Virus record (IMG/VR): IMGVR_UViG_3300045988_144993 | Source of the DNA: a virus | Direction: 5' to 3' (one strand) | DNA: 64,000 nucleotides | Shown: in pieces, positions 4,704 through 23,157 of the stretch | Layout: each line of letters starts with the position of its first letter | Numbering within the stretch: the first letter of the stretch is position 1 | Made by a program: the position numbers and the translations under genes | Notes under the pieces: model-generated | The model's database searches: none | What the model was told of the DNA's origin: nothing | The model's input: the letters and a program-made list of their open reading frames with translations, nothing else

Positions 4704-4779
4704 TTAGAAATAATTTTGAGAAAAACGCTTGACAAATGGTTAAACCTATGTTACAATGTGTATAGTAAATGATTTACTA
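4704..4779 (+). promoter_or_regulatory. promoter with conserved upstream element and palindromic operator
   Basis: Upstream element TTAGAAATAATTTTGAGAAA at 4704-4723. -35 TTGACA at 4729-4734 and extended -10 TACAAT at 4752-4757. A perfect 17-bp palindrome, TAGTAAATGATTTACTA, lies at 4763-4779. Confidence 0.6.
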
Positions 4780-4807
4780 CACCACAAAGAATAGGAGTAA
4801 AAACAAA

Positions 4808-5020
4808 ATGAAAGTTACAAAGATTTATGTAGTCAGAGTACAGGCACGAGATGAATGGGGTTCAAGAAATTTAGACGAAGCATTTTTCAAACTTGAAAAG
4901 GCACAGAAGTTTATTGAAAGTCGCGGCGACAATCCAAAGCAGTTTAGCCCATATTATTATGAATCATCAGAATATAGATATTATATTGATAAATTAAGCA
5001 TACACGGTAAAAGGAGATAA
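4808..5020 (+). CDS. hypothetical protein
   Basis: The tracked ORF starts inside the operator. I trimmed the start to the ATG at 4808, which follows ribosome-binding site AATAGGAG. Confidence 0.5.
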   Translation: MKVTKIYVVRVQARDEWGSRNLDEAFFKLEKAQKFIESRGDNPKQFSPYYYESSEYRYYIDKLSIHGKRR

Positions 5021-5025
5021 ACACA

Positions 5026-5532
5026 ATGAGAGATTTAACAGCGTATGCAATAGAATGTATGACAGAGCTTGATAATATCGGAATTGAGTATGGAAATATT
5101 ATTGAGTTCACAGTAAATACAAGAGCAAAGAAAAGATGGGGGCAATGCAAGGCTGTTCCAGGCGGATATTCGATAAACATTAGTAATGTATTGCTTGATG
5201 AGAGAAACGATGTAAAAGGACTCAAGGAGACAATTCATCACGAGTTGCTGCATAGTTGCAAAGGCTGTATGAATCACGGCAATAACTGGAAGCGATTAGC
5301 ACAAAAAGTTAATAGAGCTTATGGTTATAATATTAAAAGGACAAATTCAGCAACCGACAAGGGTGTGCTTGAAGAAACAAGACCTCCTGTGAAACAAAGA
5401 GAAATCAATCATAAGGTTGTATGTCTTGACTGCGGACATATCTACACAAGAACAAAGATGAGCAAATTGATAACTAATACAGACCGTTACCGTTGCGGAT
5501 GCTGCGGCGGAAAGTTAAAACTTGAATATTAA
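5026..5532 (+). CDS. SprT-like zinc metalloprotease
   Basis: HELLH zinc-binding motif (IHHELLHSC). C-terminal zinc ribbon with the cysteine pattern CLDCG...CGCCGG. Confidence 0.6.
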   Translation: MRDLTAYAIECMTELDNIGIEYGNIIEFTVNTRAKKRWGQCKAVPGGYSINISNVLLDERNDVKGLKETIHHELLHSCKGCMNHGNNWKRLAQKVNRAYGYNIKRTNSATDKGVLEETRPPVKQREINHKVVCLDCGHIYTRTKMSKLITNTDRYRCGCCGGKLKLEY

Positions 5533-5571
5533 AAATAAGCAAGAGCAACGCAAAAATGGAGGTTATTTGAT

Positions 5572-5844
5572 ATGGTAAAATATACATTCAGAAACAAAAA
5601 ATATGAAGCCACTGGTAAAGCAGAAAAGTTATTTGAAAAATGGGCAACCATCGGAACATCCGATGAATTAAAAAGAAACAAATTAACATTGTGTCAATAT
5701 CATTCTTTGCCTGGTATGTTACACGAGATAGCCCAATCAGGAAAGACACGAACCTGTAGCTTTGATATTGCAGAATGGTTTATAAAGCGTGGTTGCAAAG
5801 TAACACTGGATGAACACAATATCAATTTTGAAATCACGATATAA
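5572..5844 (+). CDS. hypothetical protein
   Basis: ORF with ribosome-binding site GGAGG. Confidence 0.5.
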   Translation: MVKYTFRNKKYEATGKAEKLFEKWATIGTSDELKRNKLTLCQYHSLPGMLHEIAQSGKTRTCSFDIAEWFIKRGCKVTLDEHNINFEITI

Positions 5845-5857
5845 GGAGATATATAAA

Positions 5858-6274
5858 ATGATTAAGATTGAAGCATTAAAAAACTACACCATTCCCTATT
5901 GTGGAAATAAAAGAATCCAGCCTTATGGTGATTTGGTTATCTCTGATGGTGAGTGCCGAAAGACCTGCAAAATTCAGGATGACGGAGCAAAGCAGTATAT
6001 CACCTTTAACCGCAAGAGATATTATGTTCGCAATGCTGGCACTCTTTATAGTCCGAAGTTCGTGATTATTGGCAGTATCGAAGATGCTGCTTCGGTATTG
6101 AGACTATGTAACTACAAGGTTGAAATCCAGAGCGACACGGCACTGATGGTCTACTACAAGGACAACGGCAACGACCACACACAAGTCTTCATATGCGATG
6201 AAAGCAGAGACGGCTACTATATGATAGAGGGCAGAGTTCAGAATCTTGCCGACTGGATTAAGAGAGGTATCTAA
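5858..6274 (+). CDS. hypothetical protein
   Basis: Start trimmed to the ATG after ribosome-binding site AAGGAGATAT. Confidence 0.5.
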   Translation: MIKIEALKNYTIPYCGNKRIQPYGDLVISDGECRKTCKIQDDGAKQYITFNRKRYYVRNAGTLYSPKFVIIGSIEDAASVLRLCNYKVEIQSDTALMVYYKDNGNDHTQVFICDESRDGYYMIEGRVQNLADWIKRGI

Positions 6275-6276
6275 CA

Positions 6277-6495
6277 ATGTATATGCTACTTCAAGTAGAT
6301 AAAGAGGAAAACGGAGTTGTTGAAGGAACACATATGCAATGGTGCTGTGCTTGTTCTCTCGAAGAAGCAGCGACACGAGCAAGAGAAACAGAAAAAGCAA
6401 ATGGAAATCATATAACCGTTGCGGTGATTGATGAATTATATGACTCATACACAACCGGCAGACAGTTCAAAGAGAAGAAAAGACTTGATAAGTAA
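6277..6495 (+). CDS. hypothetical protein
   Basis: Start codon overlaps the upstream stop codon. Confidence 0.45.
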   Translation: MYMLLQVDKEENGVVEGTHMQWCCACSLEEAATRARETEKANGNHITVAVIDELYDSYTTGRQFKEKKRLDK

Positions 6496-6546
6496 GAGAG
6501 GAAATTGTTATGAAAATTAAAACTTGGATTAAGTGGCACGAAAGTT

Positions 6547-6768
6547 ATGTACCGGCACGTTGCCGACGGTCTGGGTCATAACCACGGCGGCACTGGAATG
6601 TTCTGCTCATACAATTACAATCCGAACATCTGCAAGGAAAGTTACTTTTCCGCATTGCAAGGAGAGCAGGCTGTCGCATATGTAAACAAGGTAGCCGCAG
6701 GTTGTGGCGATACAAATGATGTTGGAAAATTTAAGCCGTTTATCGTATGTCATAATGATAAGCGGTAA
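6547..6768 (+). CDS. hypothetical protein
   Basis: No ribosome-binding site. A 23-codon ORF at 6510, which does have a ribosome-binding site, overlaps it in another frame, so this may be a frameshifted gene. Confidence 0.3.
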   Translation: MYRHVADGLGHNHGGTGMFCSYNYNPNICKESYFSALQGEQAVAYVNKVAAGCGDTNDVGKFKPFIVCHNDKR

Positions 6769-6786
6769 AGTTGAAAATCTTATTGA

Positions 6787-7818
6787 TTGGATAAAAAGAG
6801 GATGAACAAAATGGAAAAATGCACATTAAGTAAATTTGAAAATATTGAAATTAAAAACGATACAAGAATTGCAAAAGATGACCTTGCATTTTGTGAATCT
6901 AACCAAAGATTATATCTTAAAGTTCTCAAAAATTATCAAAATATTTATGGCGACTTGCTAAAGGTACTGCAAAAAGAACAATCACAATTTGAAAAAATTG
7001 AGATGGAGAATACTTTTACTAAAAACGGATATTCTTATAAAAAATACGATTATCATTTTTTATCAATAAATAAAGAAGATTTTGCAGAAATAATATCCGG
7101 AGTTCACAAAATTTTTATCACAACTATTGTTGATTATTTTATTGAAAAATACGGCGTAGAATTAAATGTAAAATCTGTTGACGAAATACTCGGAATTGAA
7201 AAGCCAAAGCAAGTTGATGGTAATTATTGGGGCTATCGCAACCTAACCAATGAAGAAATTGATAAAATCAAAGAAAGAAACAGAGAATATGAAAAATCTC
7301 TGGATAAATACAGAGATAAAGTTATTACAGCAAAAATTGATTTTAATACTATCATTGATGATATTTTCGTCCAATTAGACGGATATTCTTTTGTTGACAA
7401 AGTTAAGAAAGAAATCATTGATTCTTGCAAGTCTGCTTGTTTTAATCAATATAGAAAATATGGTTATGCTGAATTAAAAAAGAATAAAATTTCAATCGAA
7501 ACAGGTTTTGATAGTTATTTTAGCAGTATATGGAAAAAATATGAAGCAAGCACAGATAATTCAGCATTTAGGGCAATAATGAGAGCCTTATCATTCTTTG
7601 ATAGCGGAGAAAATAACATTTCCATTTATGATAGCTGGTATTACTCATTCATTTATTACAATAAACAAGAAACAGATGGTATTTACGGCTTGCATTCCGC
7701 ATACGGAAATAAGGTTGAATCATTCAAATTTTATAAAAACGGAAAGTGGGAAGTAAAGTTTATTTCAGAGGAAGAAGCACAGAAATTCTTCGATATGTAC
7801 TGCAAATTGGAGGCTTAA
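6787..7818 (+). CDS. hypothetical protein, paralog of 7823-8593
   Basis: Its C-terminus resembles that of the next ORF (..KNG.W.VKF.S.E.A..F...Y). Confidence 0.6.
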   Translation: MDKKRMNKMEKCTLSKFENIEIKNDTRIAKDDLAFCESNQRLYLKVLKNYQNIYGDLLKVLQKEQSQFEKIEMENTFTKNGYSYKKYDYHFLSINKEDFAEIISGVHKIFITTIVDYFIEKYGVELNVKSVDEILGIEKPKQVDGNYWGYRNLTNEEIDKIKERNREYEKSLDKYRDKVITAKIDFNTIIDDIFVQLDGYSFVDKVKKEIIDSCKSACFNQYRKYGYAELKKNKISIETGFDSYFSSIWKKYEASTDNSAFRAIMRALSFFDSGENNISIYDSWYYSFIYYNKQETDGIYGLHSAYGNKVESFKFYKNGKWEVKFISEEEAQKFFDMYCKLEA

Positions 7819-7822
7819 TAAT

Positions 7823-8593
7823 ATGAATTTATTAGATAAATTTACAGATATAAAAGTAGATAATTCAAAGAGATTACCGGCGGAAGATATGGAACATTGT
7901 AAGATTGAAGAAGAAATGTTTTTGAATGCGTACAACGCATATTCAACGGCTTATAACAGTGTCAAAAATGCTTTTGATAGGCAAAATCAATTTGATGGCG
8001 GAAAATATAGCGGCTTTATCTGGGAATATTGCGATTGTGGAATAAATGATTTAAGAAATAAACTAATATCTTTGAAGTCATCCTTTATAAGTAAAATTGT
8101 CGGATATTTTAATCGAAAATATCACTTGAATTTGTCCTGCAATAACAAATTTGATGGAACTACATATCATAAAGATTTAAGTTTAGATGTTATCACAATA
8201 GAGGAAGTTTTGGATGAATATATTTTCGGAAGATTAGAAGGATTGACATTTACAGAATGTGCAATTAAACAAGCTATGGAGAAGAACGACATCAAACGGC
8301 AAGAATGGAATAAATGGTGTGAAAAATGGAATTATTCAGTTAAAGGAAGAGCTATTAAATTCCAATACTCAATCACAGACCAAAAACCGCTTCTTTACTT
8401 CTACGATAACAACGAAACAGAAGTATGTTCGACATTAAAACATAATAAGATAGATTCTATTCAAGAATTTAAGAATGGAAGTGTATCAGTTAAGTTTTTG
8501 TCTGCTGAATTTGCATTAGAATTTGCAAAGAAATATCTTGGATATATTGAAATGACCGATGAAGAAATAGAAAAACTGAAAGCGGGAAATTAA
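7823..8593 (+). CDS. hypothetical protein, paralog of 6787-7818
   Basis: Shares the C-terminal motif of the upstream ORF. Lies directly before the methyltransferase-helicase gene. Confidence 0.6.
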   Translation: MNLLDKFTDIKVDNSKRLPAEDMEHCKIEEEMFLNAYNAYSTAYNSVKNAFDRQNQFDGGKYSGFIWEYCDCGINDLRNKLISLKSSFISKIVGYFNRKYHLNLSCNNKFDGTTYHKDLSLDVITIEEVLDEYIFGRLEGLTFTECAIKQAMEKNDIKRQEWNKWCEKWNYSVKGRAIKFQYSITDQKPLLYFYDNNETEVCSTLKHNKIDSIQEFKNGSVSVKFLSAEFALEFAKKYLGYIEMTDEEIEKLKAGN

Positions 8594-8594
8594 A

Positions 8595-11500
8595 ATGAAA
8601 TATATTGTTGAAAATTTGATAATTCCACAAGATAAACGGGCAGAGATTAACAACAAAATTCTTTATTTGATTGACAACGGAATAGCGGAAGAAAACGGAA
8701 TAACTGCAACTGACATAGCAAGCTCATACACCGGAAACGGTGGATTAAGTGGAGAAAAATTTTCAAACTATGAAAATTATTATGATTATTCAGAAGCCAA
8801 AAAAGAATTTGAACAAGGACAGTTTTTTACACCGTATGCCATTACCGATTTTGTAATACAATGTTTGAAACCGGACAAATTCGATATAATTATGGATTTA
8901 ACTTGTGGTCACGGAGCTTTTGCCAATTCTGTTCCCCAGGAAAGTAATTTCTTTGGTTGTGAAATTGATATGAAATCTTATAAGGTTGCAAAATATTTAT
9001 ACCCAAAAGCAAATATCCGGTGTTCAGATATAAGAGTATATAATCCTGAAATAAGAGCAGATGTTATTGTCGGAAATCCACCATTTAATTTGAAGTGGCA
9101 AATTGGAGATACGACTTATGTATCACAACTATACTACACAATTAAAGCATCGGAGAATATTAAACCGGGTGGTTTAATGGCTCTGGTAGTTCCATCAAGT
9201 TTTCTGGCGGATGATTTTTCCGATAGAGGAATGATAGAAGAAGTTTCAAAAGAATGGAATCTATTATGTCAGTTTGACATTCCTTCAGATACATTCAAAA
9301 ATCTCGGCGTTACTAATTTTTCTACTAAAATTATGTTTTTCCAAAAGAAAAGCGAACATATTTTAGATGTAAAATTTAGCACGAAAAAAATTGCAATTGA
9401 TTGTCTTAATATAGAATCTTCAAATTTCATTTATGAAAATTATATAAAGCCTGTAATCACTTTAAGAAATAAGTTGAAAAATCAGTTGTTTTTTGAAAAT
9501 TTACACGATGGCAAGACTCAAGAACAAAAACAATTTGAATATAAAGTTAAAAAAATGATGTTTGATATTAAGAGAAATCCTGCTTTACAGGATAAATATG
9601 CAAAATGCAGCGAGTATCTTTACAAATACCAAACACAGAAAATGCCAGAAGGAATGAAGTATGAAGAATGGGAAAAGAGGAAAATCACGCCTAATAAGGT
9701 ACTTGCCTATTTAAGAAAAGTTATCAAATCTGAACATAAAGTTGAAATTGATAAGATTGAATTAGTAAAAACTGATTATGGCTTAAAGTTAAAACCATAT
9801 AGCCGTAAAATGAAAATCTTATTGAATAAACAATATGGAGATTTTGGAAAATTTGTATCTATTAACGATATTGTTTCAGGTCAATGTTCATATCAATTTG
9901 AAAACAAAAAGTATGAAAAACTTATTGATAAGAAAATTAAAGATTTTCAAAGTAATGAAGTATCATTTAAGGATATGAAACAAGATTCTAATATAATGAA
10001 ATTTCTTGATAATTTTTCTATCCACGATTATAACAAAAATGAAACTTATAAGTTGACGGAAAAGCAAAAAGAAGATATAAATAAACTTTTGCAGAAAAGA
10101 TATGTTTTCTTGCAGTGGGAACAGGGTAGCGGAAAAACTTTTGCCGGCATAGCTCAAATGGATTATAGATTCCAACACAACAATATTAGAAATGCTTTTG
10201 TAATCTCTACTGCTATCGCGATAAATAACAACTGGCAAGATTGCCTTGAGGCTTACCATTATGACTATATAAGAATCAATAGTTATTCGGATATTCAGAA
10301 GATTAAAAAAGGACAAATTGTTTTAATTACTCTTGATATACTCAATACTTTACAAAAACATATTAAGAAATTTGTTAAAATGCAATCTCAAAAAGTTATG
10401 CTTGTAATGGATGAAAGTGATAGCATATCAAATCAAAATAGCAAGAGAACAAAAGCAGTATTAAGTTGTTTTAGAAAAATTAAATACAAAGTATGTATGA
10501 CCGGAACAAGCACACGAAACAATATTTGTGAAATTTACCCTCAACTTGAATTGCTTTACAATAATAGCGTTAATATGTTGTGTGAATGTGAAACTGTTTA
10601 TGTTGTGGATAAAAATAAGGATTCTGAAACCAAAGGCAAAATTATTTCCGATTTTAATAAACAATATAATAATCCATTCCCAGCATATAAGAAAGGATAT
10701 TCATTATTCAGCAAATGTTTTCTGCCAGATAAAATCACTGTATTTGGAGTTGTTAAAAAAACACAAGATATATATAATTCAGAAGCATTGAAAAAATTGC
10801 TTGACAAAACGATAATCACAAGGAAATTTGAAGAAGTCACAGGCAAGAAAATTTACGAAATCAAAAATGTCACTTGTAAATTCACACCGGAAGAAGAAGC
10901 ACTATATTCAATAGCAATAGAGGAATTTTATAAAATGCAATATCTATTTAAGACAACAGGAAACAGCAGAAAAGATGCTATGTTGAGAATCTTAAATCAA
11001 TTAACTCTTTTGCTTAAAATATGTGCTTGTCCTCACACATTCAAAGAATATTCTTCAACTGAATTGTCGAGTAAATATAAAAAAGTATTTGAGATGATTG
11101 AAAAGTGGAATAATGAAAGAATTGTAATAGGTGTTCGCCACGTTGACAATGTTTATTCTTATGCCACGGCAATTAAGGAATTATATCCGAATAGACCATT
11201 GTTTGTTATTACCGGAAATAACACAACATTAAAGAAAAGAATATCAATTTGTAATGAACTGAAAAAAACAAGAAATGGTATTTTAATTTGCACACAGCAA
11301 TCATTATCGTGCAGTATGAATATTGACTTTGTAAATAAGTGTATTATTCCAGAATTGCATTGGAATAATGCAAGTATGAGTCAGTTTTATTTTCGATTTA
11401 TCAGATTCACTTCTACGGAATGGAAGGAAATATATTTTGTAACTTATGAAAACAGTATAGAAGGAAATCTGTTAAAAATGATTCTGTGTAAAGAAAAATT

Positions 11501-11657
11501 GAACCTTTTTATGAAAGATGAAAAAGTCGAAGATGATGACCTATATAGTAAGTTTGGAATTAACGAAATGATGCTAAAGGCGTTAATGACAAAGGGAAAG
11601 GACGAGAAAGGCAATATTAAAATCTTATGGGGTCATCAAAAAATCACAAACGATTAG
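8595..11657 (+). CDS. N6-adenine DNA methyltransferase fused to an SNF2/DEAD-like helicase (DarB-like)
   Basis: N-terminal methyltransferase motif I (IMDLTCGHGAF) and motif IV (VGNPPF). Helicase motif I (GSGKT), motif II (DESD), motif III (TGT) and a C-terminal Q..R block. Confidence 0.75.
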   Translation: MKYIVENLIIPQDKRAEINNKILYLIDNGIAEENGITATDIASSYTGNGGLSGEKFSNYENYYDYSEAKKEFEQGQFFTPYAITDFVIQCLKPDKFDIIMDLTCGHGAFANSVPQESNFFGCEIDMKSYKVAKYLYPKANIRCSDIRVYNPEIRADVIVGNPPFNLKWQIGDTTYVSQLYYTIKASENIKPGGLMALVVPSSFLADDFSDRGMIEEVSKEWNLLCQFDIPSDTFKNLGVTNFSTKIMFFQKKSEHILDVKFSTKKIAIDCLNIESSNFIYENYIKPVITLRNKLKNQLFFENLHDGKTQEQKQFEYKVKKMMFDIKRNPALQDKYAKCSEYLYKYQTQKMPEGMKYEEWEKRKITPNKVLAYLRKVIKSEHKVEIDKIELVKTDYGLKLKPYSRKMKILLNKQYGDFGKFVSINDIVSGQCSYQFENKKYEKLIDKKIKDFQSNEVSFKDMKQDSNIMKFLDNFSIHDYNKNETYKLTEKQKEDINKLLQKRYVFLQWEQGSGKTFAGIAQMDYRFQHNNIRNAFVISTAIAINNNWQDCLEAYHYDYIRINSYSDIQKIKKGQIVLITLDILNTLQKHIKKFVKMQSQKVMLVMDESDSISNQNSKRTKAVLSCFRKIKYKVCMTGTSTRNNICEIYPQLELLYNNSVNMLCECETVYVVDKNKDSETKGKIISDFNKQYNNPFPAYKKGYSLFSKCFLPDKITVFGVVKKTQDIYNSEALKKLLDKTIITRKFEEVTGKKIYEIKNVTCKFTPEEEALYSIAIEEFYKMQYLFKTTGNSRKDAMLRILNQLTLLLKICACPHTFKEYSSTELSSKYKKVFEMIEKWNNERIVIGVRHVDNVYSYATAIKELYPNRPLFVITGNNTTLKKRISICNELKKTRNGILICTQQSLSCSMNIDFVNKCIIPELHWNNASMSQFYFRFIRFTSTEWKEIYFVTYENSIEGNLLKMILCKEKLNLFMKDEKVEDDDLYSKFGINEMMLKALMTKGKDEKGNIKILWGHQKITND

Positions 11658-11685
11658 CTAAAAGTAAAAAGAGAGGTATAAATAA

Positions 11686-12300
11686 ATGAAAGATAATAAA
11701 TTTACAAAAAGAATGAGTGACAAAGGGAAATTGACTTGGCAATATTTCACTATGGCAGCAATTACATTTGTTATAATTCTTGCCGTTGTTATGGGAATAT
11801 TCTTTATCTGTTCACATTCAAAAGTAGTGGCAATGACACCAGACAATATAAATGTGTCATTGATTGAGCAGAAAGGCACACCTACGGCGCAAACTATGCT
11901 TATGAATATAAATACAAGCAAAGAGCCTGAAAATGCAACACGGGGCAATACAGAGGGCAATATGTCTGAATATATAAATCTTGGAGAATTTCGTTTGGCG
12001 GTGTATTGCTCGTGTTCAGTTTGTTGTGAACAGTATGCAAGTAACAGACCGATAGACAAAGACGGTAATGAAATTGTATATACTGCATCAGGAAAAATTG
12101 CAAAATCAGATTAAACTATTGCAGCAGACCCTTCGGTTCTTCCATATGGTACTATTGTTTACATAAACGGTCACAAATATGAGGCACAGGATTGTGGTGG
12201 AGCAATTAAAGGAAACAGTATTGATATATACTTTGATAATCACGAAGATGCTCGTAAATTTGGTGTGCAATATGCTAATGTATTCACAGAAAGAAATTGA
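11686..12300 (+). pseudogene. 3D-domain (MltA/YocH-like) protein with an in-frame TAA
   Basis: An N-terminal transmembrane segment followed by a 3D domain (TASGKIAKSD[TAA]TIAADPSVLPYGT...GGAIKGN.IDIY). The TAA sits where a sense codon is expected, at about 12112-12114. Confidence 0.5.
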
Positions 12301-12366
12301 CAAAAGAATATTACATAGTATAATAGTAAATAGATTACCATACTATTATATGTTGGAGGAGTTTGA

Positions 12367-12666
12367 ATGAAATATAGCAAACAGTTTGCAGCACAAGTTT
12401 TACAATTCAACTCACAATGGGAAAATACAAACCAATCTGTTATTGCCGATAATGTAGAAAAATATCTCTATGCTAAATATCCTGAATGCAAAGAATCATA
12501 TAATGTAAAAATGGATAAGCTAATAGATATTACCAAAAGCAAAAAGGATTCAATTTATTCTTGGCTTAATAGAAGCCGTGAAAATGTAAAAGTTCCATTG
12601 CTAAAATTATGTATGCTTGCTGTTGCATTTGATGTTAATGTGAACAATTTTCTTGAAGTTGACTAA
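12367..12666 (+). CDS. hypothetical protein
   Basis: ORF with ribosome-binding site GGAGGAG. Confidence 0.55.
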   Translation: MKYSKQFAAQVLQFNSQWENTNQSVIADNVEKYLYAKYPECKESYNVKMDKLIDITKSKKDSIYSWLNRSRENVKVPLLKLCMLAVAFDVNVNNFLEVD

Positions 12667-12696
12667 AAATAATTTTGAGAAATTGCAAAATTGTTA

Positions 12697-12725
12697 TTGA
12701 CAAATCAAAAATTATGTTATATAAT
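12697..12725 (+). promoter_or_regulatory. sigma-A-type promoter with upstream element, followed by a structured ~170-nt leader
   Basis: TTGACA-N17-TATAAT. The next 170 nt (12730-12898) hold no ORF and contain a 9-bp-stem hairpin at 12810-12842. Confidence 0.5.
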
Positions 12726-12898
12726 AAAAATACCCTATTAAGAGTGTGTGAGGGAGCAAGCCCTATGACCGCACAGCAACCTGCCAACAGGTAAGGTGCT
12801 AATGCTTGACCGATAGGAAAATTGATTATCAAATCCTATCGGTGACGATGGGATTTTCTTATACGCTCTAATAATTAAATTAGAGAGGAAAAATTACT

Positions 12899-13222
12899 AT
12901 GAACAGAACAATTAAAGAACTTGTAAAAAAGAATGGCAGAGTATATGTTTATCTCGGAGATTCGGAAACTGGGAATCAGTTTATGAAACAGGCTGAATCT
13001 GAAGGATTTACATTTACAGACGGAGCAAAACCCACTGAAAGATGTTATGCCGAGATTATGGCGGTAAACCGTGATATTACAATTAACTTTGTCGGAATGA
13101 ACGGAAGAATTGCATTCGGCAGTGGAGTAGAGACCGTCAATGGTCAGAAACTCCTTCGAGTGGATTTTGCAAAGTATGCAAACGGAGAATCTGACTATCT
13201 ATACCGCAAGTCTCAAAATTAA
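12899..13222 (+). CDS. hypothetical protein
   Basis: ORF with ribosome-binding site GAGAGGAAAA. Confidence 0.55.
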   Translation: MNRTIKELVKKNGRVYVYLGDSETGNQFMKQAESEGFTFTDGAKPTERCYAEIMAVNRDITINFVGMNGRIAFGSGVETVNGQKLLRVDFAKYANGESDYLYRKSQN

Positions 13223-13254
13223 AACCTATCCTATTGACACAAGGAGATAAGAAT

Positions 13255-13587: not shown

Positions 13588-13688
13588 CAATAAAAACGAC
13601 ATTTTATTAACATTTATACACTATATATTGTGTCTGCTGCAAAATTAAACCACAATATATTGTGTAAATATAACAAGGAGATGGAAAA

Positions 13689-13967: not shown

Positions 13968-13979
13968 GGAGTATAAGGT

Positions 13980-14501: not shown

Positions 14502-14875
14502 ATTCTGCTAAAATTTGGTTGGATAAACTGGCGGCGGTTCAGTAAAGACAATTCCTAATTTCATCAATTCAATAATAGTATTATTCAAATAAAGATAAAC
14601 CTATTTGTTTATTATTACTATTCGATTAACCATAGAGAAGCAAATGGGTTTATCGCATACAATTTCTTATTTATATATAATATAATAATGTACATAAGAA
14701 TCGTATTAAATAAGGAATTGTATGTAAATCAATACTATTCTTAATTTCTATAAGAATAATGAATAGTATAAAAAGTAATACTATACATAAAGGTATATTA
14801 TTCTGTATGGAAATTCTGCATACAAAATCGGCGGAGATTTTTTCACAGAATTAGAAATAATTTTGAGAAAAATGC

Positions 14876-14926
14876 TTGACAAATATAAAAGCGTTTGCTA
14901 TAATGATTATAGTAAATGAATTACTA
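14876..14926 (+). promoter_or_regulatory. promoter with upstream element and palindromic operator
   Basis: Upstream element TTAGAAATAATTTTGAGAAA at 14851. TTGACA at 14876 and extended -10 TATAAT at 14899. Palindrome TAGTAAATGAATTACTA at 14910-14926. Confidence 0.55.
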
Positions 14927-14969
14927 CAACACAAAAACACGAAACACATACAGAAAGAGGTATTTATTA

Positions 14970-16804
14970 TGGCAACTATTACAATGAATAACGAAAAGAA
15001 CGGAATTGAAATCAGATTTGACGGTAAGCCTGAAAGTTCAATTATTGTAGCACTTAAAGAGAATGGTTTCCGTTGGAGTGGAAAGCAGAAAATGTGGTAT
15101 GCAAAGCAGAGTGCAGATAGAATTTTATTTGCTGAAAGTCTCGGAGAATTTTCTTCTCCTATTAAAAACAAGGCTGAGCAACACGAAAAATACAACTTGT
15201 GGGAAATGACAAGAACGGATGGAATTGAGGATAATTACAGTAAATATCATATCTATAGCACCAAAGAAATCGCAGCTATAATCAGAAAAAATTTAAGAGC
15301 GAGATTTCCTATGTGTAAATGGTCAATAACAAGTGATTATAATAGCATTTGCATTGACCTGCTGGCTTCCCCATTTTGTTCTGAAAGCGATGAAATTAAA
15401 GCCATTATACATTATGCTTATAAGTTTGCAGAGAGTTATAACTATGACAATAGTGATTCGATGACGGACTACTTTGATGTCAATTTCTATGGCGTATATG
15501 AAAGTAGCATTTTAAGTCATCATTATGAGCAGAAGGAAATGACTGACGATGATAAAGAAATGTGCAAAGTGTTTCAGCAGAACAAGGTAGATTTTGAAGC
15601 AGCCGAAGAAATCCGCAAGCAGAAAGAGTTTGAGGAACAGATGAAGCAGAGAGAAATCGAAGAAGCCGAAGCTAAAAAGCGTGCTGAAATCCGCAAAGCA
15701 AATGAAAAGATTATCGAAGATAACCACACAGTTAAAAAAGTTAATTATACTATCGTGAATGCCATTCTAAAGGCTAACAAAGATGACAACCTTGACCACA
15801 CTGAAATTTATGACGAAAAACAGTGCAGAGAAACTTGTCAGGTTTCCAGAGAAGTACATTTTACCACAGAGGTCTATGTACTTTTTGAAAAACAGTTGAT
15901 GAGCGATTATTCATTCTTTGATGGAATGGGCGGAAGCCGTACAGATGACCGTAGAATCCAATCATCAATAGACTATGATATGATGACCGAAGAAGAAAAG
16001 GAAACTGTCGAGTGGTACAATATTGATTGCGTTGCTATATATTGTGATGGTGAGCTGAAACTTATCGTTGACCCACAGGGTTACAATTATGCAAGATATG
16101 TATATGTTTACGATGAGCAGAGCCAAAAGGTTGATACTTACCATTCAGATTATGGTATTAGTGAAGAAGAACATCAGCATAATATTGAACTTGCAGAAAC
16201 TATTGAAGATGTCAGCACCGAGATTATCAGTCAAAATGAAATCAAAAAGACCTGGCAGAATGAAGATTTTGATTTATATAAGGCTTGTATGAAAGAATGG
16301 ATTTATGCAAATAAATTCAAGTTGAATGCCGGCATTGTCAGGGCAATTACAATTCCCGAACTTAAAACGGTTATGTATAAGGTTCTTACAGAAGTTGACA
16401 GCATAGCGGAACAATTCAAAAATACAAATCTTGAGGCAGGACAGAGAATCACAATCGTAAAGTATAGCGACTTTGGTATGATGTCGGTATCAAAAGTAAC
16501 ATTTCATAGTTACGAAATCGGACAATACGCACAGTATGATAATTCTGTGAAAATGACATTCAAGCCGCATAGAAAGAAAGGTCTTTATTATAAGTGGTTT
16601 TATGGAGATGTTATCATCTACAATGGATGGTATGACCTTCCTGATACAGTTCTGTTTGATATATCATACAAAGAACATTGTATTACACAAAAATCTAAAT
16701 GGGTATCATTTGATAGAAAGCAGTATGATGCTATACTTGAATACTTTGCGGAACAAGGATTGAAACCGATTATCAATACTTATAAACCACAATTTAGAAA
16801 GTGA
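14970..16804 (+). CDS. hypothetical protein (612 aa) with a K/E-rich coiled-coil segment
   Basis: Start trimmed to the ATG after ribosome-binding site AAAGAGG. Confidence 0.55.
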
Positions 16805-16815
16805 GGTTATTATAA

Positions 16816-17646
16816 ATGGAAGTAATCGGCAGACCAAGACGAATTAACAATATAGGTGAAGTATCACAAGAGGAAGCGGAAATCTATACCCGAAATTCCG
16901 AGTTAAACATCAATAGACAGGAAATTCCTATTGGTACAGTTGTTTACTATATTAAAAAACACGGTCACGAATGGAGAGTTGATTTTGGAACAGTAGAAGA
17001 ACATTATACAAGCGAGATTTGTATTCAACTTTATGATTTTGCAGATACAAGGCTTATCAATGGTGTACCATCTAATGAATTTGTAACACCAACGAAATGG
17101 AAGAAGTTACCAAAAGGATGGAGTTATAATACAAAACTCTTTGAATGCAGTGATATAGAATTACCTGCGATTGCTAAAACTCTAAGTCTATCCAAAACAG
17201 ATGATATTTTAACGGCAATCAAAGAAGGAATATTAGTAAAGGTTCAGAATATTGATTATTGCCATTTTTGTACAGAGATAGATTCTAAAAAGGGATGGAG
17301 AATCATTCGTCAATATCCTATGACGGAACATCATCCAGAGTACAAGAGTTTTATACCTTGTGAGCTTTTCAGGACTTATGAGGAAGCACAGAAAATGATT
17401 GACATTCATCAAGCTGAACTTAAAAGACAGGCAAATTTGTCAGACCTTGAATGGTCTATTGAACAGATTGATAAAGTTATAGACCGTTGGGCTATAACAT
17501 ATGATATTTCAACAGAGGAAAAGGCAAAATGCAGAGAACGAATAATGTGCATTGATAAACTTGAAAATGTTGAAACAAAGGTGTCCGGTGGAATGGTTCA
17601 GTGGAAATATGAGGATAAGAAACGATGGATGACGGTTGAGTATTAA
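16816..17646 (+). CDS. hypothetical protein
   Basis: ORF with ribosome-binding site GTGAGG. Confidence 0.55.
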   Translation: MEVIGRPRRINNIGEVSQEEAEIYTRNSELNINRQEIPIGTVVYYIKKHGHEWRVDFGTVEEHYTSEICIQLYDFADTRLINGVPSNEFVTPTKWKKLPKGWSYNTKLFECSDIELPAIAKTLSLSKTDDILTAIKEGILVKVQNIDYCHFCTEIDSKKGWRIIRQYPMTEHHPEYKSFIPCELFRTYEEAQKMIDIHQAELKRQANLSDLEWSIEQIDKVIDRWAITYDISTEEKAKCRERIMCIDKLENVETKVSGGMVQWKYEDKKRWMTVEY

Positions 17647-18154
17647 GACTATGGATAGAAAAGCTACAACAATAAAAATATCAAAGGCACTTGAAAAGCA
17701 TATAAATCCAAGATATGATACAAGAATATATATGTCAAAAGAGGTTACTTTTGATTATGGAAGTTTGCATCCAATAAGAGTTGATTATATGCTTTTTAAA
17801 CCGTTAAATAACACTATTTCAGGCATTGAAAAAGGAGATTTTTATTGTTATGAAATAAAATCGTGTGTAGATGATTTTCATTCAAAGAACGGTCATAATT
17901 TCATTGGCGATTTTAATTATTATGTTATGACATCAGGTACATACGACAAAATAAAAGATGAAATCAAATACAATGCTTATGTAGGTGTGTATGTTCTTGA
18001 TGATAGTGGAATGCTAACGATTATCAAGAAAGCCAAAAGAACAAATAGGAAATATCCATTGACTGAAACATTATTGATGATGTTTCGTTCGGCTAATAGA
18101 GAATTTATAAAATCATTAAAAGAACAGGAGAGCAAATCAGATGGCACAGTTTAA
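17636..18154 (+). CDS. hypothetical protein
   Basis: ORF overlapping the upstream stop codon. Confidence 0.5.
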   Translation: MSIKTMDRKATTIKISKALEKHINPRYDTRIYMSKEVTFDYGSLHPIRVDYMLFKPLNNTISGIEKGDFYCYEIKSCVDDFHSKNGHNFIGDFNYYVMTSGTYDKIKDEIKYNAYVGVYVLDDSGMLTIIKKAKRTNRKYPLTETLLMMFRSANREFIKSLKEQESKSDGTV

Positions 18155-18422
18155 CAATAATTACGAGGATTTCATTCAGAAAGTTATTACAGCTGAAACT
18201 TCTGCACTTAATAGTGAGAAAGGTCAGAAATTTTTACAGAAACTCTATGATGAAGCAAAAACACAGAATCCTGATATTACAGCGGAAGAATGGAGCAAAA
18301 TCAAAAAGCAGTTTATGGTTTCAATATTTCACGAAATACTGAAGGAAAATCCTAATTTTATGTCACAGTTCATTGGACTTGTTAAAGAAGAAATTGCAGA
18401 GGAGACGAAAGATGAGAATTAA
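18141..18422 (+). CDS. hypothetical protein
   Basis: ORF with ribosome-binding site AGGAGAG. Confidence 0.5.
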   Translation: MAQFNNNYEDFIQKVITAETSALNSEKGQKFLQKLYDEAKTQNPDITAEEWSKIKKQFMVSIFHEILKENPNFMSQFIGLVKEEIAEETKDEN

Positions 18423-18627
18423 AGAAATCATTTCACAGCATCGCAGGGATTTTAAGGCTATATTTGAGTGTGAACACTGCGGACATACCGAAACAAAAAG
18501 CGGATATGATGATGCAAACTATCATCAGAATGTTATACCTACAATGAAATGTTCTAAATGCGGCAAGGTTGCAGGTGAAAATTACAGACCTTTGACAACG
18601 AAATATCCGGAAGGTATGCAAGTATAA
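18412..18627 (+). CDS. small zinc-ribbon protein
   Basis: Two CxxC pairs (CEHCG...CSKCG). Confidence 0.45.
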   Translation: MRIKEIISQHRRDFKAIFECEHCGHTETKSGYDDANYHQNVIPTMKCSKCGKVAGENYRPLTTKYPEGMQV

Positions 18628-18873
18628 TGGAGGAATTATGACTTGGTGGCAAATTATACTATTAGTAATTTTAATCATTGTTGCCTTATTTAGTATTTGT
18701 TTTATAGTTATTTGGATTTATGGAACTATAATGCAGCATAAATACATTGATAAGTTTAAGAGTGATGACCCAAATTACAATACACATTAGAAATTATAAA
18801 TACATAATTGGAAGGATTGTTAATAGTGATTGATTGTACGAAAACTACAAACTACTTCAACGAAAAGTTGAGG

Positions 18874-19653
18874 ATGACGAAAAGAACAAGAGACGGGGTA
18901 TGTCACATTAAATGTGAGGACTGCCCTTTAGGTAGTATGAATAATGGCATAAATGTTCTGTGTGCAGACTTTGAAACGATTTATCCTAAAAAAGCAGTCG
19001 AAGCTATTCAGAAATGGAGTGACGAACATCACACTTTGCTTAGTGATGATGGAACACCCGAAGCCGCCGAGGTTACCGATAAGGAATTGGAGCTTATCAA
19101 TGCGTATTCACGCAGAAAGCTGACAAAGGACGAGGTATATGTTTTCGGTGTGGTTTTGTGCGACAACGATATTGACCGTGACAACGAGCGTTTTACCGTG
19201 GAGTCGCTTTTTGAACTTGAAAAACTTTTTGTAGGCAAGACGGGTATTTTTGACCACTCGCCGACAGCCAAAACCCAGACGGCAAGAATTTTTGCCTGTT
19301 CGGTTGAAAGCGTTGACGGCAAAAAAACGGCAACGGGCGATGATTATTTCAGACTTACCGCAAGGGCATATATTCCGAAAGCCAAGGGTAACGATGAGAT
19401 TATTCAGGCGATTGACAGCGGTATTTTAAAGGAAGTAGGCATAGGCTGTGCCGCAGATGAAGTAAAATGCAGTGTTTGCGGCGAAAGCCTTAATCATTGC
19501 TCGCACATAAAAGGCGAAACCTACGGCGGCAGAAAGTGTTACGGCGAGCTTTGCGGTATTTGTGACGTTTACGAATGGAGTTTTGTTGCCGTTCCTGTAC
19601 AAAGAAGTGCAGGAGTTATTAAAAGTTTTAAGGGAAAGGAAATGAGAGTTTAA
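18874..19653 (+). CDS. hypothetical protein with a weak HK97 prohead-protease-like pattern
   Basis: Pattern VFGVVL..D...E.F...SL....F.DH...GIL.EVGIGC. The assignment is weak. Confidence 0.35.
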   Translation: MTKRTRDGVCHIKCEDCPLGSMNNGINVLCADFETIYPKKAVEAIQKWSDEHHTLLSDDGTPEAAEVTDKELELINAYSRRKLTKDEVYVFGVVLCDNDIDRDNERFTVESLFELEKLFVGKTGIFDHSPTAKTQTARIFACSVESVDGKKTATGDDYFRLTARAYIPKAKGNDEIIQAIDSGILKEVGIGCAADEVKCSVCGESLNHCSHIKGETYGGRKCYGELCGICDVYEWSFVAVPVQRSAGVIKSFKGKEMRV

Positions 19654-19783
19654 ATGAGAGTCTATCAGTGTGATAGTTGTAACAAAGTTATCTCAAATCC
19701 GCACAATGTTAAAATGAAGGAATTTTATGTAGGGATTGATACTTAATACTTTACTCGGATTAAAATTATTGGAGGAAAATCAA

Positions 19784-20116
19784 ATGAAAATTAAAGCAGG
19801 TCAAGAGGAAAATTATAATCAGTTTGTTACAGTAAACAGTAAAGACCCTTATTCAAATGTAGTTGTGCAGTATGCAGAAAGATGGGCAAATCTTATGGAA
19901 TCCAGAATTGCTTCGGGGGATAAAATTGTTGATATAGCAGATAGTACATCTCGTGAAGCAGACACAGAGGGTATTACTGGTTTTATGTATGGTTGTGCTG
20001 TTAATGCTTTGTCTCAACTTTGGGAATACGGAGAGGAATTAAGGAAATGGCACAACAAAGAATATAACTATGAAGGCGATGGGGTAGTCAATCCAGCTAT
20101 TCTCACTATAGGATAA
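19784..20116 (+). CDS. hypothetical protein
   Basis: ORF with ribosome-binding site GGAGGAAAA. Confidence 0.5.
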   Translation: MKIKAGQEENYNQFVTVNSKDPYSNVVVQYAERWANLMESRIASGDKIVDIADSTSREADTEGITGFMYGCAVNALSQLWEYGEELRKWHNKEYNYEGDGVVNPAILTIG

Positions 20117-20130
20117 AAGAGGTAATCATA

Positions 20131-20883
20131 ATGACTGAAAATATAACGGTTGAAGAAAACAAAATGTCTCCGCAGGAGTATTTTGATATTGTAAAAGAGA
20201 GGAAAAGGAAAATTACCGATGAACAATTAAAATCGGTATATGATAATTGTCTTGAACTTCTTAATAAATATAATATAACAGGTCAGCAGGGAGGTATGGA
20301 AAAACTCTTATTTCATCTTAATTGCATTGAGAAAGAAAGAGAGATTGTTTCAATGGGTATTGATACATTTGTATATCGTGATGATATTGAGTTCTATATC
20401 AATGAAGTTGCCTCTGATGTTGTCAAAATTATTGATATTCAAAGTTATGAGAGAGAAATTCCTGATGAGATTGTTGAAATTATTTCGCAGGTGAAAGATA
20501 AATTCGACCAGCTTTATATAGTGTTTACTGATTATACTGGCAGGATTGAACGAAAGGTAACAGAAGAACGTAGAAGAAAAGACCCTATTTTATTTGGAAC
20601 ATTTCAGAATGCCGAAACGAGAAGTGTTATTGACCGTTTTTATTATCTTGGTGATTGGGTTGATGAATATTGCGACCTTACACTTGATAAGATGGTCAAT
20701 GAGACTGAACGAGTAGGTAAGAGAAACATTGTTCATACTATTAAAACACCAACAGATATTGAAGAATTAAAAGCACAGTTGAACAGCATTAAAAAAGTCA
20801 ATTCAAGATTTGTTGTTGAGGAACAGAAAAAGAAAAGTTTCTTTGCAAGCATTAAGAACTTTCTTGATAGGAAAAAGAAATGA
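20131..20883 (+). CDS. hypothetical protein
   Basis: ORF with ribosome-binding site AAGAGG. Confidence 0.55.
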   Translation: MTENITVEENKMSPQEYFDIVKERKRKITDEQLKSVYDNCLELLNKYNITGQQGGMEKLLFHLNCIEKEREIVSMGIDTFVYRDDIEFYINEVASDVVKIIDIQSYEREIPDEIVEIISQVKDKFDQLYIVFTDYTGRIERKVTEERRRKDPILFGTFQNAETRSVIDRFYYLGDWVDEYCDLTLDKMVNETERVGKRNIVHTIKTPTDIEELKAQLNSIKKVNSRFVVEEQKKKSFFASIKNFLDRKKK

Positions 20884-21248
20884 TGAAATCAAATATAGAC
20901 TTAACATCAAATGAGATGTTTAGTCGGGAATCTGTGTCGCTTCAATTTAACTTTATAATAAAACATATATATGGTTTACCGTGGGATATGTCAAAAGTGG
21001 CTATTGCCAAAAACGACAGTGATTTAATTCCGAAATTCGAGGGTATCAGAACAGGAGATAAAAGATGTAGAGAACTAAAAGAATTGTGCGAAAGAGAAAG
21101 CACCGGAGATTATTGTGATTGCTGTGGTTCTTATCTTAAAACAATTCCGTGGGATAGAACTTATGGATTGTGTAAGAAGTGTATGGCACATTACGCTAAA
21201 GAGGATTGGGCAAAAGAAGATTTACCCTGGGTAAGCCACAAGAAATGA
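20880..21248 (+). CDS. hypothetical cysteine-rich protein
   Basis: CDCCG...CKKCM motif. Confidence 0.5.
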   Translation: MMKSNIDLTSNEMFSRESVSLQFNFIIKHIYGLPWDMSKVAIAKNDSDLIPKFEGIRTGDKRCRELKELCERESTGDYCDCCGSYLKTIPWDRTYGLCKKCMAHYAKEDWAKEDLPWVSHKK

Positions 21249-21316
21249 GAGGACAGATGGAAACAAATCCGTTATTTTGGGATTAAAAATAATATTGAGA
21301 AAATTCAAAAATATTA

Positions 21317-21367
21317 TTGACATTCTGGCATACATATGATATACTATCCATAGTAAATGATTTACTA
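21317..21367 (+). promoter_or_regulatory. integrase promoter with palindromic operator
   Basis: TTGACA at 21317 and extended -10 TATACT at 21340. Palindrome TAGTAAATGATTTACTA at 21351-21367, identical to the one at 4763. Confidence 0.6.
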
Positions 21368-21386
21368 CACAGGAGGTAGTGAAATA

Positions 21387-22340
21387 ATGAATACAAACAC
21401 AGTAAAAATCACACCATTATTCCAGAAAGTCGGAATTGATATTATTGAATTTCCTCAACAGGATAAAGCAACGAAATTAAAGAAAGATGGAACACCAAAA
21501 AATATTGTGTGCAACAAAAAGAAAGGCAAGAAATCAGAAGTTTATGCTATTGAAATTCCTGATATTAAGAAGTTAATAGATTTCTTTTATCAAAATGAAA
21601 TGTGGCAACATTATTTGATTTTCGTTTTGTCCTGTAATATGGCTCGCCGTATTGGTGATACACTTACTTTGACTTGGGAGCATTTCTTTAATCCGACAAC
21701 TGGTGCGATGAGAAATGACTTGCTTGAAATCGTAGAGGACAAGACCGACAAGCTCGCAAATCCTCATATCAATTCAGCTTGTAAAAAAGCAATTCTGCTT
21801 TATATTGAAAAAACAGGTATCAATCCTGCCGAAAACAATTATAAGAATTATGTTTTTGTGCAGACCAGCGGAAACTATAAAGGTAGAGTTATTACTGATG
21901 ATGGCTACCGTAAAGGCTTGAAAAAGGCTGCTGTTCAAGTTGGTATTGAGTATAACATTGGAACTCATAGTCCTCGTAAAACTTTTGGTATGATTAGTAG
22001 GATGTTGCATCCAAATGATTATGATAGTATGGAACTCCTTCAGACTATCTATAATCATAGCGATACCAAAACAACAAACCACTATATCGGATTAACAAAG
22101 AAGAAGATTGACACCTACTATGATGATATGGGTTCATTTTTTGATGATTATGTCACAGGTGATAAAACATATATGGAAGTTGCAGAGCAGCCCGTAGTAA
22201 GTATTGATACTAATTCTTTGAGAGATATTATCAAAGAGGCATATAAAGCCGGAGCAGAAAATGCAGATAACACCGACCCTGTTATTCACATTGATGCAAT
22301 CAACAAAATTATCGGTATGATTGAAGGAGTGGCAAAGTAA
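21387..22340 (+). CDS. int: tyrosine site-specific recombinase (phage integrase)
   Basis: ARRIGDTLTLTW (catalytic Arg I), HSPRKTF (HxxR box) and NHYIG (catalytic Tyr). Confidence 0.8.
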   Translation: MNTNTVKITPLFQKVGIDIIEFPQQDKATKLKKDGTPKNIVCNKKKGKKSEVYAIEIPDIKKLIDFFYQNEMWQHYLIFVLSCNMARRIGDTLTLTWEHFFNPTTGAMRNDLLEIVEDKTDKLANPHINSACKKAILLYIEKTGINPAENNYKNYVFVQTSGNYKGRVITDDGYRKGLKKAAVQVGIEYNIGTHSPRKTFGMISRMLHPNDYDSMELLQTIYNHSDTKTTNHYIGLTKKKIDTYYDDMGSFFDDYVTGDKTYMEVAEQPVVSIDTNSLRDIIKEAYKAGAENADNTDPVIHIDAINKIIGMIEGVAK

Positions 22341-22546
22341 TGGATAAAAATGATTATGAAAATCACGAAGTTAAAGCCCAAATTAGAGAATATCTCGGAT
22401 GTATATGTAATGCTTGCCCGGAACTCCGCATAGGGCAAATAATGGTTAATGCAGCAGCAAAGGGTGGATGGACTCAAGGAGATATATTCTATTGTTCTGA
22501 TGAAATTCTATTAAAGGGTTTGGAAATTTTATGGGATGAGGTGTAA
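22340..22546 (+). CDS. hypothetical protein
   Basis: Its start overlaps the integrase stop (TAATG). Confidence 0.5.
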   Translation: MDKNDYENHEVKAQIREYLGCICNACPELRIGQIMVNAAAKGGWTQGDIFYCSDEILLKGLEILWDEV

Positions 22547-22548
22547 AT

Positions 22549-22953
22549 ATGATTTATATTCTTATTCATAAGACTGTGAATAATGAAATATCAAGACATT
22601 TCGCAGTTAATAAAGAAGCTCAAAACCTTATGTGGAATGAATACGATGAAGTTCGTAAAAATTCTATTGATAAGGTATCTGGCAATCGTGGTGGTGATTG
22701 GTGTGAGATTATATATTCCGATAAGTCAAAGGAAACTTGGAGCATATACCCTGTTGACATTCCAAAGACAGAGGAAATCTGTGTAACTTATAAGACAAGA
22801 ACAGACATTGTATATTTCATCACTAAAAAAGAACTTACCGTTGATAATTTCTTCATATATCAATATGATATAAACAAAAGTGAAACAATTAAACTTGGTA
22901 AAAGTAATAATCCCATTTTACTGGAGCAGAAGTATATAAAAAATATTTCTTAA
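22549..22953 (+). CDS. hypothetical protein
   Basis: ORF. Confidence 0.5.
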   Translation: MIYILIHKTVNNEISRHFAVNKEAQNLMWNEYDEVRKNSIDKVSGNRGGDWCEIIYSDKSKETWSIYPVDIPKTEEICVTYKTRTDIVYFITKKELTVDNFFIYQYDINKSETIKLGKSNNPILLEQKYIKNIS

Positions 22954-22979
22954 TTTTAGAAATAATATTGAGAAAACTA

Positions 22980-23030
22980 TTGACAAACAACACACCTTAT
23001 GTTACAATCATTATAGTAACAGATTTACTA
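22980..23030 (+). promoter_or_regulatory. promoter with upstream element and palindromic operator, upstream of the mazF-like gene
   Basis: Upstream element TTAGAAATAATATTGAGAAA at 22956. TTGACA at 22980 and extended -10 TACAAT at 23003. Palindrome TAGTAACAGATTTACTA at 23014-23030. Confidence 0.55.
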
Positions 23031-23157
23031 TAATTTATGGGCTGGAAGGAGCATTAAAAGATAGGAATTATAAGTCCACACATAATTACACACATATTAT
23101 AATAAAGTTAATCCAGCCTATGAAGTTACATATTAAAGCCATAAGGTGGTATGGATT

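Follow-up and report, generated by a model that had tools for sequence, protein, structure and literature searches.

Aca2 of phage ZF40 and other Aca proteins repress anti-CRISPR operons (PMC6765145), and according to the prediction of a 2026 study, most Aca families act on anti-defence operons in their neighbourhood as well, which has been shown for one of them (PMC13551039). Here we describe a 17-bp palindrome that recurs at promoters of the IMG/VR virus record IMGVR_UViG_3300045988_144993, a stretch of 64,000 nucleotides referred to below as the window, together with orf99, a gene for a 99-aa protein that is the candidate repressor of these promoters. The best-supported reading is that the palindrome is the double-stranded DNA operator of a dimeric repressor in an Aca-like circuit. 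As in the Aca systems, a small dimeric helix-turn-helix (HTH) protein of a mobile element would act on inverted repeats placed over the core of strong early promoters, would control itself as well as counter-defence genes, and is predicted to serve several neighbouring operons. The differences concern the arrangement, the scale and the protein. Aca genes sit downstream of an anti-defence gene in the same operon, whereas orf99 has its own monocistronic promoter and is the sole gene between that promoter (12297-12324) and the next one (12697-12725). Five or six operators are spread over ~21 kb, compared to the two or three reported for Aca systems, and among the genes predicted to be controlled are those of a tyrosine recombinase and a MazF toxin. 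In addition, orf99, whose binding is predicted, has no detectable sequence relation to a curated family. The comparison suggests a control of known kind, functionally Aca-like, that would be exerted by a stand-alone gene of an unrecognised family.

Several other systems share part of this design. The C1 repressor of phage P1, a 283-aa protein with another fold, uses asymmetric 17-bp operators dispersed over the phage genome. Here too, one repressor would act on numerous operators that stand singly at promoters scattered in a large, probably temperate phage, and both phages have a tyrosine recombinase, a DarB-type anti-restriction protein, an addiction toxin and tRNA genes; unlike the C1 operators, the present sites are palindromic and confined to one island, and there is no homology. 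A 17-bp near-palindrome, a predicted XRE-fold dimer, and the proposed early shut-off after a burst and weaker autoregulatory site are features in common with lambda Cro/cI, 434-type repressors and the controller (C) proteins of restriction-modification systems, and the structures that orf99 matches include C.AhdI, C.BclI and lambda cI. However, there are neither clustered cooperative operators nor a divergent switch, and single sites lie 3' of the -10 hexamer. In the leading region of the IncN plasmid pKM101, CUP repeats are under ArdK/KorA control, and repeated promoter-plus-operator cassettes stand before anti-restriction genes that are expressed in a burst on entry and then repressed; the context there is plasmid conjugation, and the proteins and sequences are different.

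The palindrome and its promoters

The palindrome TAGTAAATGATTTACTA occurs in two identical copies (0 mismatches) at 4763-4779 and 21351-21367, while the copies at 14910-14926 (TAGTAAATGAATTACTA) and 23014-23030 (TAGTAACAGATTTACTA) differ from it by one and two mismatches, respectively. Eight matches with up to three mismatches were found on both strands against an expectation of 0.69, and none of 100 shuffles gave eight. The four copies (O1-O4) had been reported in a preliminary description of this DNA, which placed them just downstream of the -10; each indeed begins exactly 5 nt 3' of the -10 of a near-consensus promoter (P1-P4) of the form TTGACA, 17 nt, TGnTAnAnT, with a score of 11-12 of 12. 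That list of four sites was incomplete. There is a fifth copy, TAGTAAATAGATTACCA at 12324-12340, which overlaps the -10 of promoter P5 (12319-12324), the first T being common to both, and which is kept by the orthologous promoters in relatives. The promoters and putative operators are as follows.

4729..4757, plus strand: promoter P1, with -35 TTGACA at 4729-4734, a 17-nt spacer with TG, and -10 TACAAT at 4752-4757
4763..4779, plus strand: putative operator O1, TAGTAAATGATTTACTA, 5 nt after the P1 -10
12297..12324, plus strand: promoter P5, TTGACA, 16-nt spacer, TATAAT, score 12 of 12
12324..12340, plus strand: putative operator O5, TAGTAAATAGATTACCA, overlapping the P5 -10
14876..14904, plus strand: promoter P2, score 12 of 12, with TG
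14910..14926, plus strand: putative operator O2, TAGTAAATGAATTACTA
21317..21345, plus strand: promoter P3, score 11 of 12, with TG
21351..21367, plus strand: putative operator O3, TAGTAAATGATTTACTA
22980..23008, plus strand: promoter P4, score 11 of 12, with TG
23014..23030, plus strand: putative operator O4, TAGTAACAGATTTACTA

Transcription was assumed to start at the usual distance of 7 nt after the -10, a spacing that agrees with the S-adenosylmethionine (SAM) riboswitch at 12732, which starts 7 nt downstream of a sister promoter's -10. The palindrome then spans about -1 to +16 at P1-P4, which corrects the +5 to +21 given earlier. This anatomy is that of a repressor operator lying across the transcription start, in agreement with the earlier interpretation. 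Start codons inside the palindrome had been regarded as artefacts of automatic gene calling, and this could be upheld for two genes: the open reading frames 4769-5020 and 21357-22340 have their ATG inside the site (MIYYT...), and the starts at 4808 and 21387, which are backed by a ribosome-binding site, replace 4769 and 21357.

The same design is found in related phages. IMG/VR contigs of 81-128 kb are 95-99% identical to the window, and more distant family members are contigs of 150-167 kb; no cultured relative was found by megablast of positions 4000-24000, which gave one 582-bp match among the INPHARED phages and none among the PLSDB plasmids. A scan of IMG/VR with the pattern TTGACA-N16-18-TANNNT-N4-6-TAGTAA-N5-TTACTA detected the design in 12 further large viral contigs beyond the near-identical relatives of the window, with up to five copies in each, and the same scan of 185,579 species genomes detected it in phage contigs binned into metagenome-assembled genomes of Clostridia and Ruminococcus. 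Related phage contigs that combine promoter and palindrome number at least 15 and have lengths of 34-167 kb. An exact 19-mer scan of IMG/VR gave mostly chance matches in coding regions of unrelated marine contigs, and only the close relatives in it were informative. The family consensus is TAGTAAATGAGTTACTA, with the core AGTAA-N5-TTACT, and the ATGAT centre of the window is a local variant of it.

The family loci contain 96 non-redundant near-consensus promoters, and 48 of them have the core within 12 nt of the -10, a frequency of 50% that is biased upward, as the motif itself served to retrieve many of these loci. Roughly one half of such promoters do not have the site, which therefore marks a promoter subset; in the window, palindrome-free promoters of this quality lie at 4089, 12697, 23560, 36992 and 52453. 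The site is retained at the orthologous promoters of the SprT operon, the LPD29 protein, the recombinase and the mazF leader. It is present at seven of eight recombinase promoters fetched through the protein, and the orthologous mazF promoters of three relatives (L099, L095, and L106) carry TAGTAACAGAGTTACTA or TAGTAACTGAGTTACTA. Throughout the 128-kb relative (L079), sites occur only at the equivalents of window positions 2035, 4763, 12324, 14910, 21351, and 23014.

The first of these equivalents belongs to the promoter at 1971-2030, which has no palindrome in the window; its orthologue in L079 has TAGTAAATAAATTACTA and drives a different, 67-aa gene. Judging from the two sequences at this position (window 2035 and L079), promoter, operator and gene seem to be swapped as cassettes. 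A further match in the window, TAGTAAAAACATTACGA at 4037-4053, was set aside as a probable chance match; it lies 36 nt ahead of the -35 at 4089, and distant relatives did not show it.

The conserved stretch at the promoters extends over ~80 bp, wider than the palindrome alone, and includes the upstream element TTAGAAATAATWTTGAGAAA. About 13 copies of this element are present in the window (15 matches against 6.3 expected), at 1971, 2439, 4708, 12667, 14855, 21287, 22960, 24657, 30823, 36992, 37298, 52453, and 53021. Eight copies are located 4 or 13 nt ahead of a sigma-A -35, and five are without sigma-A hexamers (2439, 24657, 30823, 37298, and 53021), of which those at 2439, 24657 and 53021 directly precede a ribosome-binding site. 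The AGAAAA core of the element resembles the TCAAGAAAATA repeats of the ImmR-like switch described below. The element could serve as a further site of regulation or as a promoter specific to the phage.

Operator DNA, transcript or host site

The preliminary description had offered a conserved 5' stem-loop as an alternative to an operator. The palindrome would then work in the transcript, as a 5'-terminal mRNA-stabilising stem-loop or as the RNA site of a protein, alone or beside DNA binding. At the offset-5 promoters it would make up the first ~16 nt of the RNA, it always has the same orientation with respect to transcription, its central bases are conserved, and there is a precedent in Aca2 and Aca1, which bind both promoter DNA and an RNA motif in the 5' untranslated region (PMC13551039). 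However, the stem is weak. Folding of each leader and of the bare palindrome gave a hairpin of -1.8 to -2.3 kcal/mol, which none of the three short leaders forms in its minimum-energy fold; for the long mazF leader it appeared in the centroid structure alone. Among the 48 non-redundant promoter-linked sites, the pairs 1/17 and 2/16 show 17 departures, only four of them compensated and none by G-U, and variants such as CAGTAA..TTACCA and CAGTAA..TTACAA cut the stem to 4 bp; a stable 5'-end stem kept by compensatory changes, which would characterise a stabilising hairpin, was not observed. No Rfam family was matched at the palindromes or at the mazF leader at gathering thresholds.

The symmetry and the position of the site bear on the same question. 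The pairs 1/17, 2/16 and 8/10 are complementary in 38-41 of the 48 sites, and positions 8/10, which are T/A in 39 of them, flank one central base, where pairing in RNA is impossible; asymmetry is confined to positions 7/11. As a rule the site follows the -10 by 5 nt; the offset is 7 nt in one phage, and the orf99 promoters have offsets of 2 or -1, at both of which the start falls inside the site. Because the hairpin is weak, most changes are uncompensated, positions 8/10 are symmetric and the offset is variable, the pattern is that of a symmetric protein on duplex DNA and not of a transcript structure. The site is very probably a protein-binding DNA operator, and a role in the transcript is highly improbable.

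The arms and the asymmetric centre also recall a recombination site, and the recombinase gene behind O3 is always linked to the motif, so that the palindromes could be thought to be the sites on which this tyrosine recombinase acts. The geometry does not fit, and a core site of this kind was rejected. Cores of tyrosine recombinases have arms of 11-13 bp and a spacer of 6-8 bp, whereas the symmetry here ends at 17 bp, with 6-bp arms and a centre of at most 5 bp, which is too small for known cores. Moreover, the position is locked to the promoter -10, and recombination among five direct copies would delete essential segments. The probability of this explanation is close to nil.

A more serious competitor is a host protein, namely a LacI-family repressor of the GanR/GalR type for galactan or galactose, in which case the phage would borrow a sugar sensor of its host. 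GanR of B. subtilis binds AGTAAA-N4(-7)-TTTACT, as established by electrophoretic mobility shift assay and mutagenesis (PMC5472308). The half-sites AGTAAA/TTTACT and the position beside the core promoter are shared with the phage sites, among which O1, O3 and O4 conform perfectly to AGTAAA-N3/4-TTTACT and O2 and O5 are off by one. Host promoters were also among the results of the genome scan; they have TAGTAAA-N3-TTTACTA at the same distance from the -10, frequently as tandem copies, and all of them lie upstream of GH53 galactanase/ganSPQ-like or galK operons of Lachnospiraceae, Turicibacter, Neobacillus, and Levilactobacillus. A LacI-family gene adjoins every such locus, and the operator of one host locus, L152, has the same sequence as O1 and O3.

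Nevertheless, the phage consensus departs from the host form at position 11, which is G in 28, A in 10 and T in 6 of 46 phage sites and T in every host site seen, and no host promoter with TAGTAAATGAGTTACTA was found in the scan of 185,579 species genomes. Searches with hmmsearch and tblastn, using nine GanR-like proteins, returned no LacI homologue below E 0.05 in the window or in family loci totalling 411 kb, and the sites are not accompanied by gan or gal genes. A low-copy host repressor would be titrated by at least five sites on a replicating genome. As the host matches came from a phage-derived pattern, some match to a host regulon is not very surprising, and a phage HTH protein with the motif on its own promoter accounts for the data without a host factor. 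Binding by a host GanR/GalR-type repressor is therefore considered unlikely. Slightly less likely again is that the phage sites work as copies of the host operator and that host sensing of galactan from the diet decides the expression of anti-defence genes, recombinase and MazF in a widespread gut prophage, with orf99 as an additional binder or a competitor for the sites; if a GanR-type explanation were true, diet sensing would be tied to phage behaviour. For the hosts themselves, the loci L117, L133, L142, L152, L137, L122, L134, L159, and L140 are galactan/galactose operons with these operators, and the N3 form in Clostridia appears to extend the B. subtilis GanR motif (N4).

The candidate regulator orf99

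The protein that would bind the operator is most likely encoded next to the fifth site, in a gene that the preliminary description did not mention.

12367..12666, plus strand: orf99, 99 aa, candidate autoregulated XRE-type HTH repressor of the palindrome

A Pfam search of ~50 window proteins identified no HTH protein in the region; the HTH of orf99, as which its C-terminal half reads, was spotted by eye first and then by structure and PHROGs. The AlphaFold model, based on 14 homologues, has a mean predicted local distance difference test score (pLDDT) of 91.5. Its top Foldseek matches in the PDB are the SinR DNA-binding domain, CapH, the N-terminal domains of HppE/MPnS, C.BclI, C.AhdI, lambda cI, and DdrO, with target-normalised template modelling (TM) scores of 0.6-0.77 and probabilities near 1. 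In the PHROGs, orf99 falls into the transcriptional regulator phrog_8 (E 1.4e-4), and a sequence profile search of the PDB with the orf99 alignment gave nothing meaningful.

The linkage between protein and motif was examined in orthologues fetched through the protein, a sample that is unbiased as to the motif. At protein identities of 33-100%, the motif is on or beside the -10 in 9-10 of 11 orthologous orf99 promoters, and a homologue of orf99 is present in the nine family genomes in which that region is covered. The sites at these own promoters are on average ~3 positions off the consensus, compared to 17 perfect sites among the 48 overall. In the window, a small HTH protein encoded on a phage thus has an inverted repeat, O5, in its own promoter and overlapping core elements of it, as in the Aca systems. 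In one distant member (L114 3430-3500), the promoter of the orf99 homologue has the motif in the spacer and -10, within a larger palindrome, AAGTAAGTGT ... ACACTTACTT. The 99-aa protein bears the NCBI label 'Ruminococcus sp.' and is encoded on hundreds of metagenomic contigs, some of them 224-907 kb long, which suggests that the phage occurs as a prophage.

The preliminary description had suggested another possible location for the repressor gene, near an ImmA-like gene at the window end.

63683..64000, minus strand: ImmA-like metallopeptidase gene, 3' part, with an HEIGH motif; the 5' part is beyond the window end

The ImmA-like gene is indeed there, and the adjoining repressor could be followed in a 96% identical relative, L029, which continues past the window end (L029 6213-7829, where the window covers 63184-64000). 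Its minus-strand operon encodes an XRE repressor of 117 aa (phrog_8, E 3e-25), an ImmA-like peptidase of 203 aa and a 144-aa protein. The pairing of an XRE-type HTH protein with an ImmA-like peptidase in one operon speaks for such a binder, and the silencing of early promoters by a master repressor would be ordinary. However, such repressors usually act on the control region of their own gene, and for immR this region (L029 7674-7829) has face-to-face consensus promoters and four TCAAGAAAATA repeats, and the TAGTAA palindrome is absent from it. The ImmR-like repressor was accordingly rejected as the binder, for which its chances are slim; it probably governs the lysogeny switch and not the palindromes, and orf99 is the better placed candidate.

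From these data we infer the following order of events, in which binding of orf99 would mean repression. On entry or induction, the host RNA polymerase would fire all five promoters, which are of the sigma-A type, and the 99-aa protein would build up from its own. It would then occupy the near-perfect operators O1-O4 and block initiation, which would end the burst of anti-defence proteins, recombinase and toxin. Finally, orf99 would limit its own synthesis via the weaker operator O5 on its own -10. With a weaker auto-operator, the targets could be shut off before the regulator restricts its own synthesis.

Several observations weigh against this model. The site equals host GanR/GalR operators, and its conserved, oriented centre ATGAG with the A7/G11 asymmetry is unusual for a symmetric dimer. 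The structural matches of orf99 have weak Foldseek E-values (0.03-0.4), and the protein has no Pfam match. Further genes of the regulon, for example the recombinase (7 of 8), are as closely linked to the motif as orf99 is, so that linkage alone does not single out the latter, and RUG13152 (L147) has the orf99 gene without a good site in its promoter. Besides the sampling bias mentioned above, the transcription starts are those derived from consensus hexamers. Taking both sides together, we put the probability that orf99 binds the palindrome and that the full repression model holds at roughly 60%.

The predicted target operons and their significance

The preliminary description had proposed that the tyrosine recombinase ('integrase'), the MazF-like toxin and two other operons are under one regulator, and the site does link the promoters of these two genes with those of other operons. 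The recombinase was recognised with E values of 9e-11 (Pfam) and 1.7e-25 (PHROG) and MazF with 2.6e-20 (Pfam). The units behind P1-P4, which together drive ~16 kb of early genes, are the following.

4808..12114, plus strand: P1 operon, with a 70-aa protein, an SprT-like protein (5026-5532), several genes without known function, and 11686-12114 as the last gene
6811-7818: phrog_27491 protein, in the P1 operon
8595-11657: DarB-like methylase/SNF2 helicase, in the P1 operon
14969..21248, plus strand: P2 operon, including genes of unknown function, with 20880-21248 as the last gene
14969-16804: LPD29 polyvalent protein, in the P2 operon
19784-20116, plus strand: Tad4 Thoeris-inhibitor homologue (Pfam PF25186, 4e-38), in the P2 operon
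20131-20883: phrog_10081 'transposase', in the P2 operon
21387..22953, plus strand: P3 operon, with the tyrosine recombinase (21387-22340) and two small genes of unknown function
23031..23541, plus strand: P4 unit, consisting of a 127-nt structured leader and the MazF/PemK toxin gene (23158-23541)

The P1 operon is separated from the P2 operon by orf99 and by a riboswitch-led operon that encodes GP17-like and GmrSD_N proteins. From 4.7 to 24 kb, the DNA is predicted to form an early anti-defence island because the P1 and P2 operons and the riboswitch-led operon encode counter-defence families; Tad4, DarB-like, LPD29 and SprT-like proteins are all encoded in operator-bearing operons, as are the anti-defence targets of the Aca proteins. 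This anti-defence nature of the controlled genes had, like orf99 and the fifth site, been absent from the preliminary description.

The riboswitch is of the SAM-I class (12732-12819, plus strand; RF00162, 58.7 bits, E 5e-11) and starts 7 nt past the -10 of a promoter without palindrome (12697-12725). It is a phage-borne SAM riboswitch situated within an anti-defence island, and its leader is conserved in the relatives L095, L109, and L111. The operon behind it comprises a 107-aa gene of unknown function and the genes for a GP17-like superinfection-exclusion protein and the GmrSD_N protein. The mazF leader (23031-23157, plus strand) has no Rfam match; it forms a long hairpin of -28.9 kcal/mol (z -2.3) that is conserved in L099, L095, and L106. 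No mazE antitoxin gene is present with mazF, and the leader could be a cis-regulatory or antitoxin-like RNA.

The window as a whole has a G+C content of 34%, and its genes are nearly all on the plus strand. Its 13 tRNA genes are arranged in several clusters at 32964-39231 on the plus strand, one of which follows a consensus promoter without palindrome at 36992-37046. The gene at 46754-47797 encodes a LAGLIDADG homing endonuclease. A radical SAM/SPASM gene (26552-27616, plus strand) is followed by three paralogous genes on the same strand (27616-28044, 28047-28517, and 28529-29095), whose products each start with MK.R.DFVTNSSSSS. An N6/N4 DNA methylase gene at 61800-62273 (plus strand) is apparently split, with the DPPY region at ~61880 and the C-terminal 78 aa in another frame (62037-62273; PF01555, 5e-24), which suggests a frameshift or a pseudogene.

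The predicted co-regulation of the tyrosine recombinase and the orphan MazF with anti-defence genes points to a role of both in early infection. If orf99 is the binder of the palindrome, it would represent a new Aca-like regulator family of large phages from Firmicutes of the gut and rumen, and its regulon, at five or six operons and ~16 kb, would be unusually large. In that case, promoters with TAGTAA-N5-TTACTA would flag, in these phages, candidate early counter-defence genes, most of which are of unknown function.

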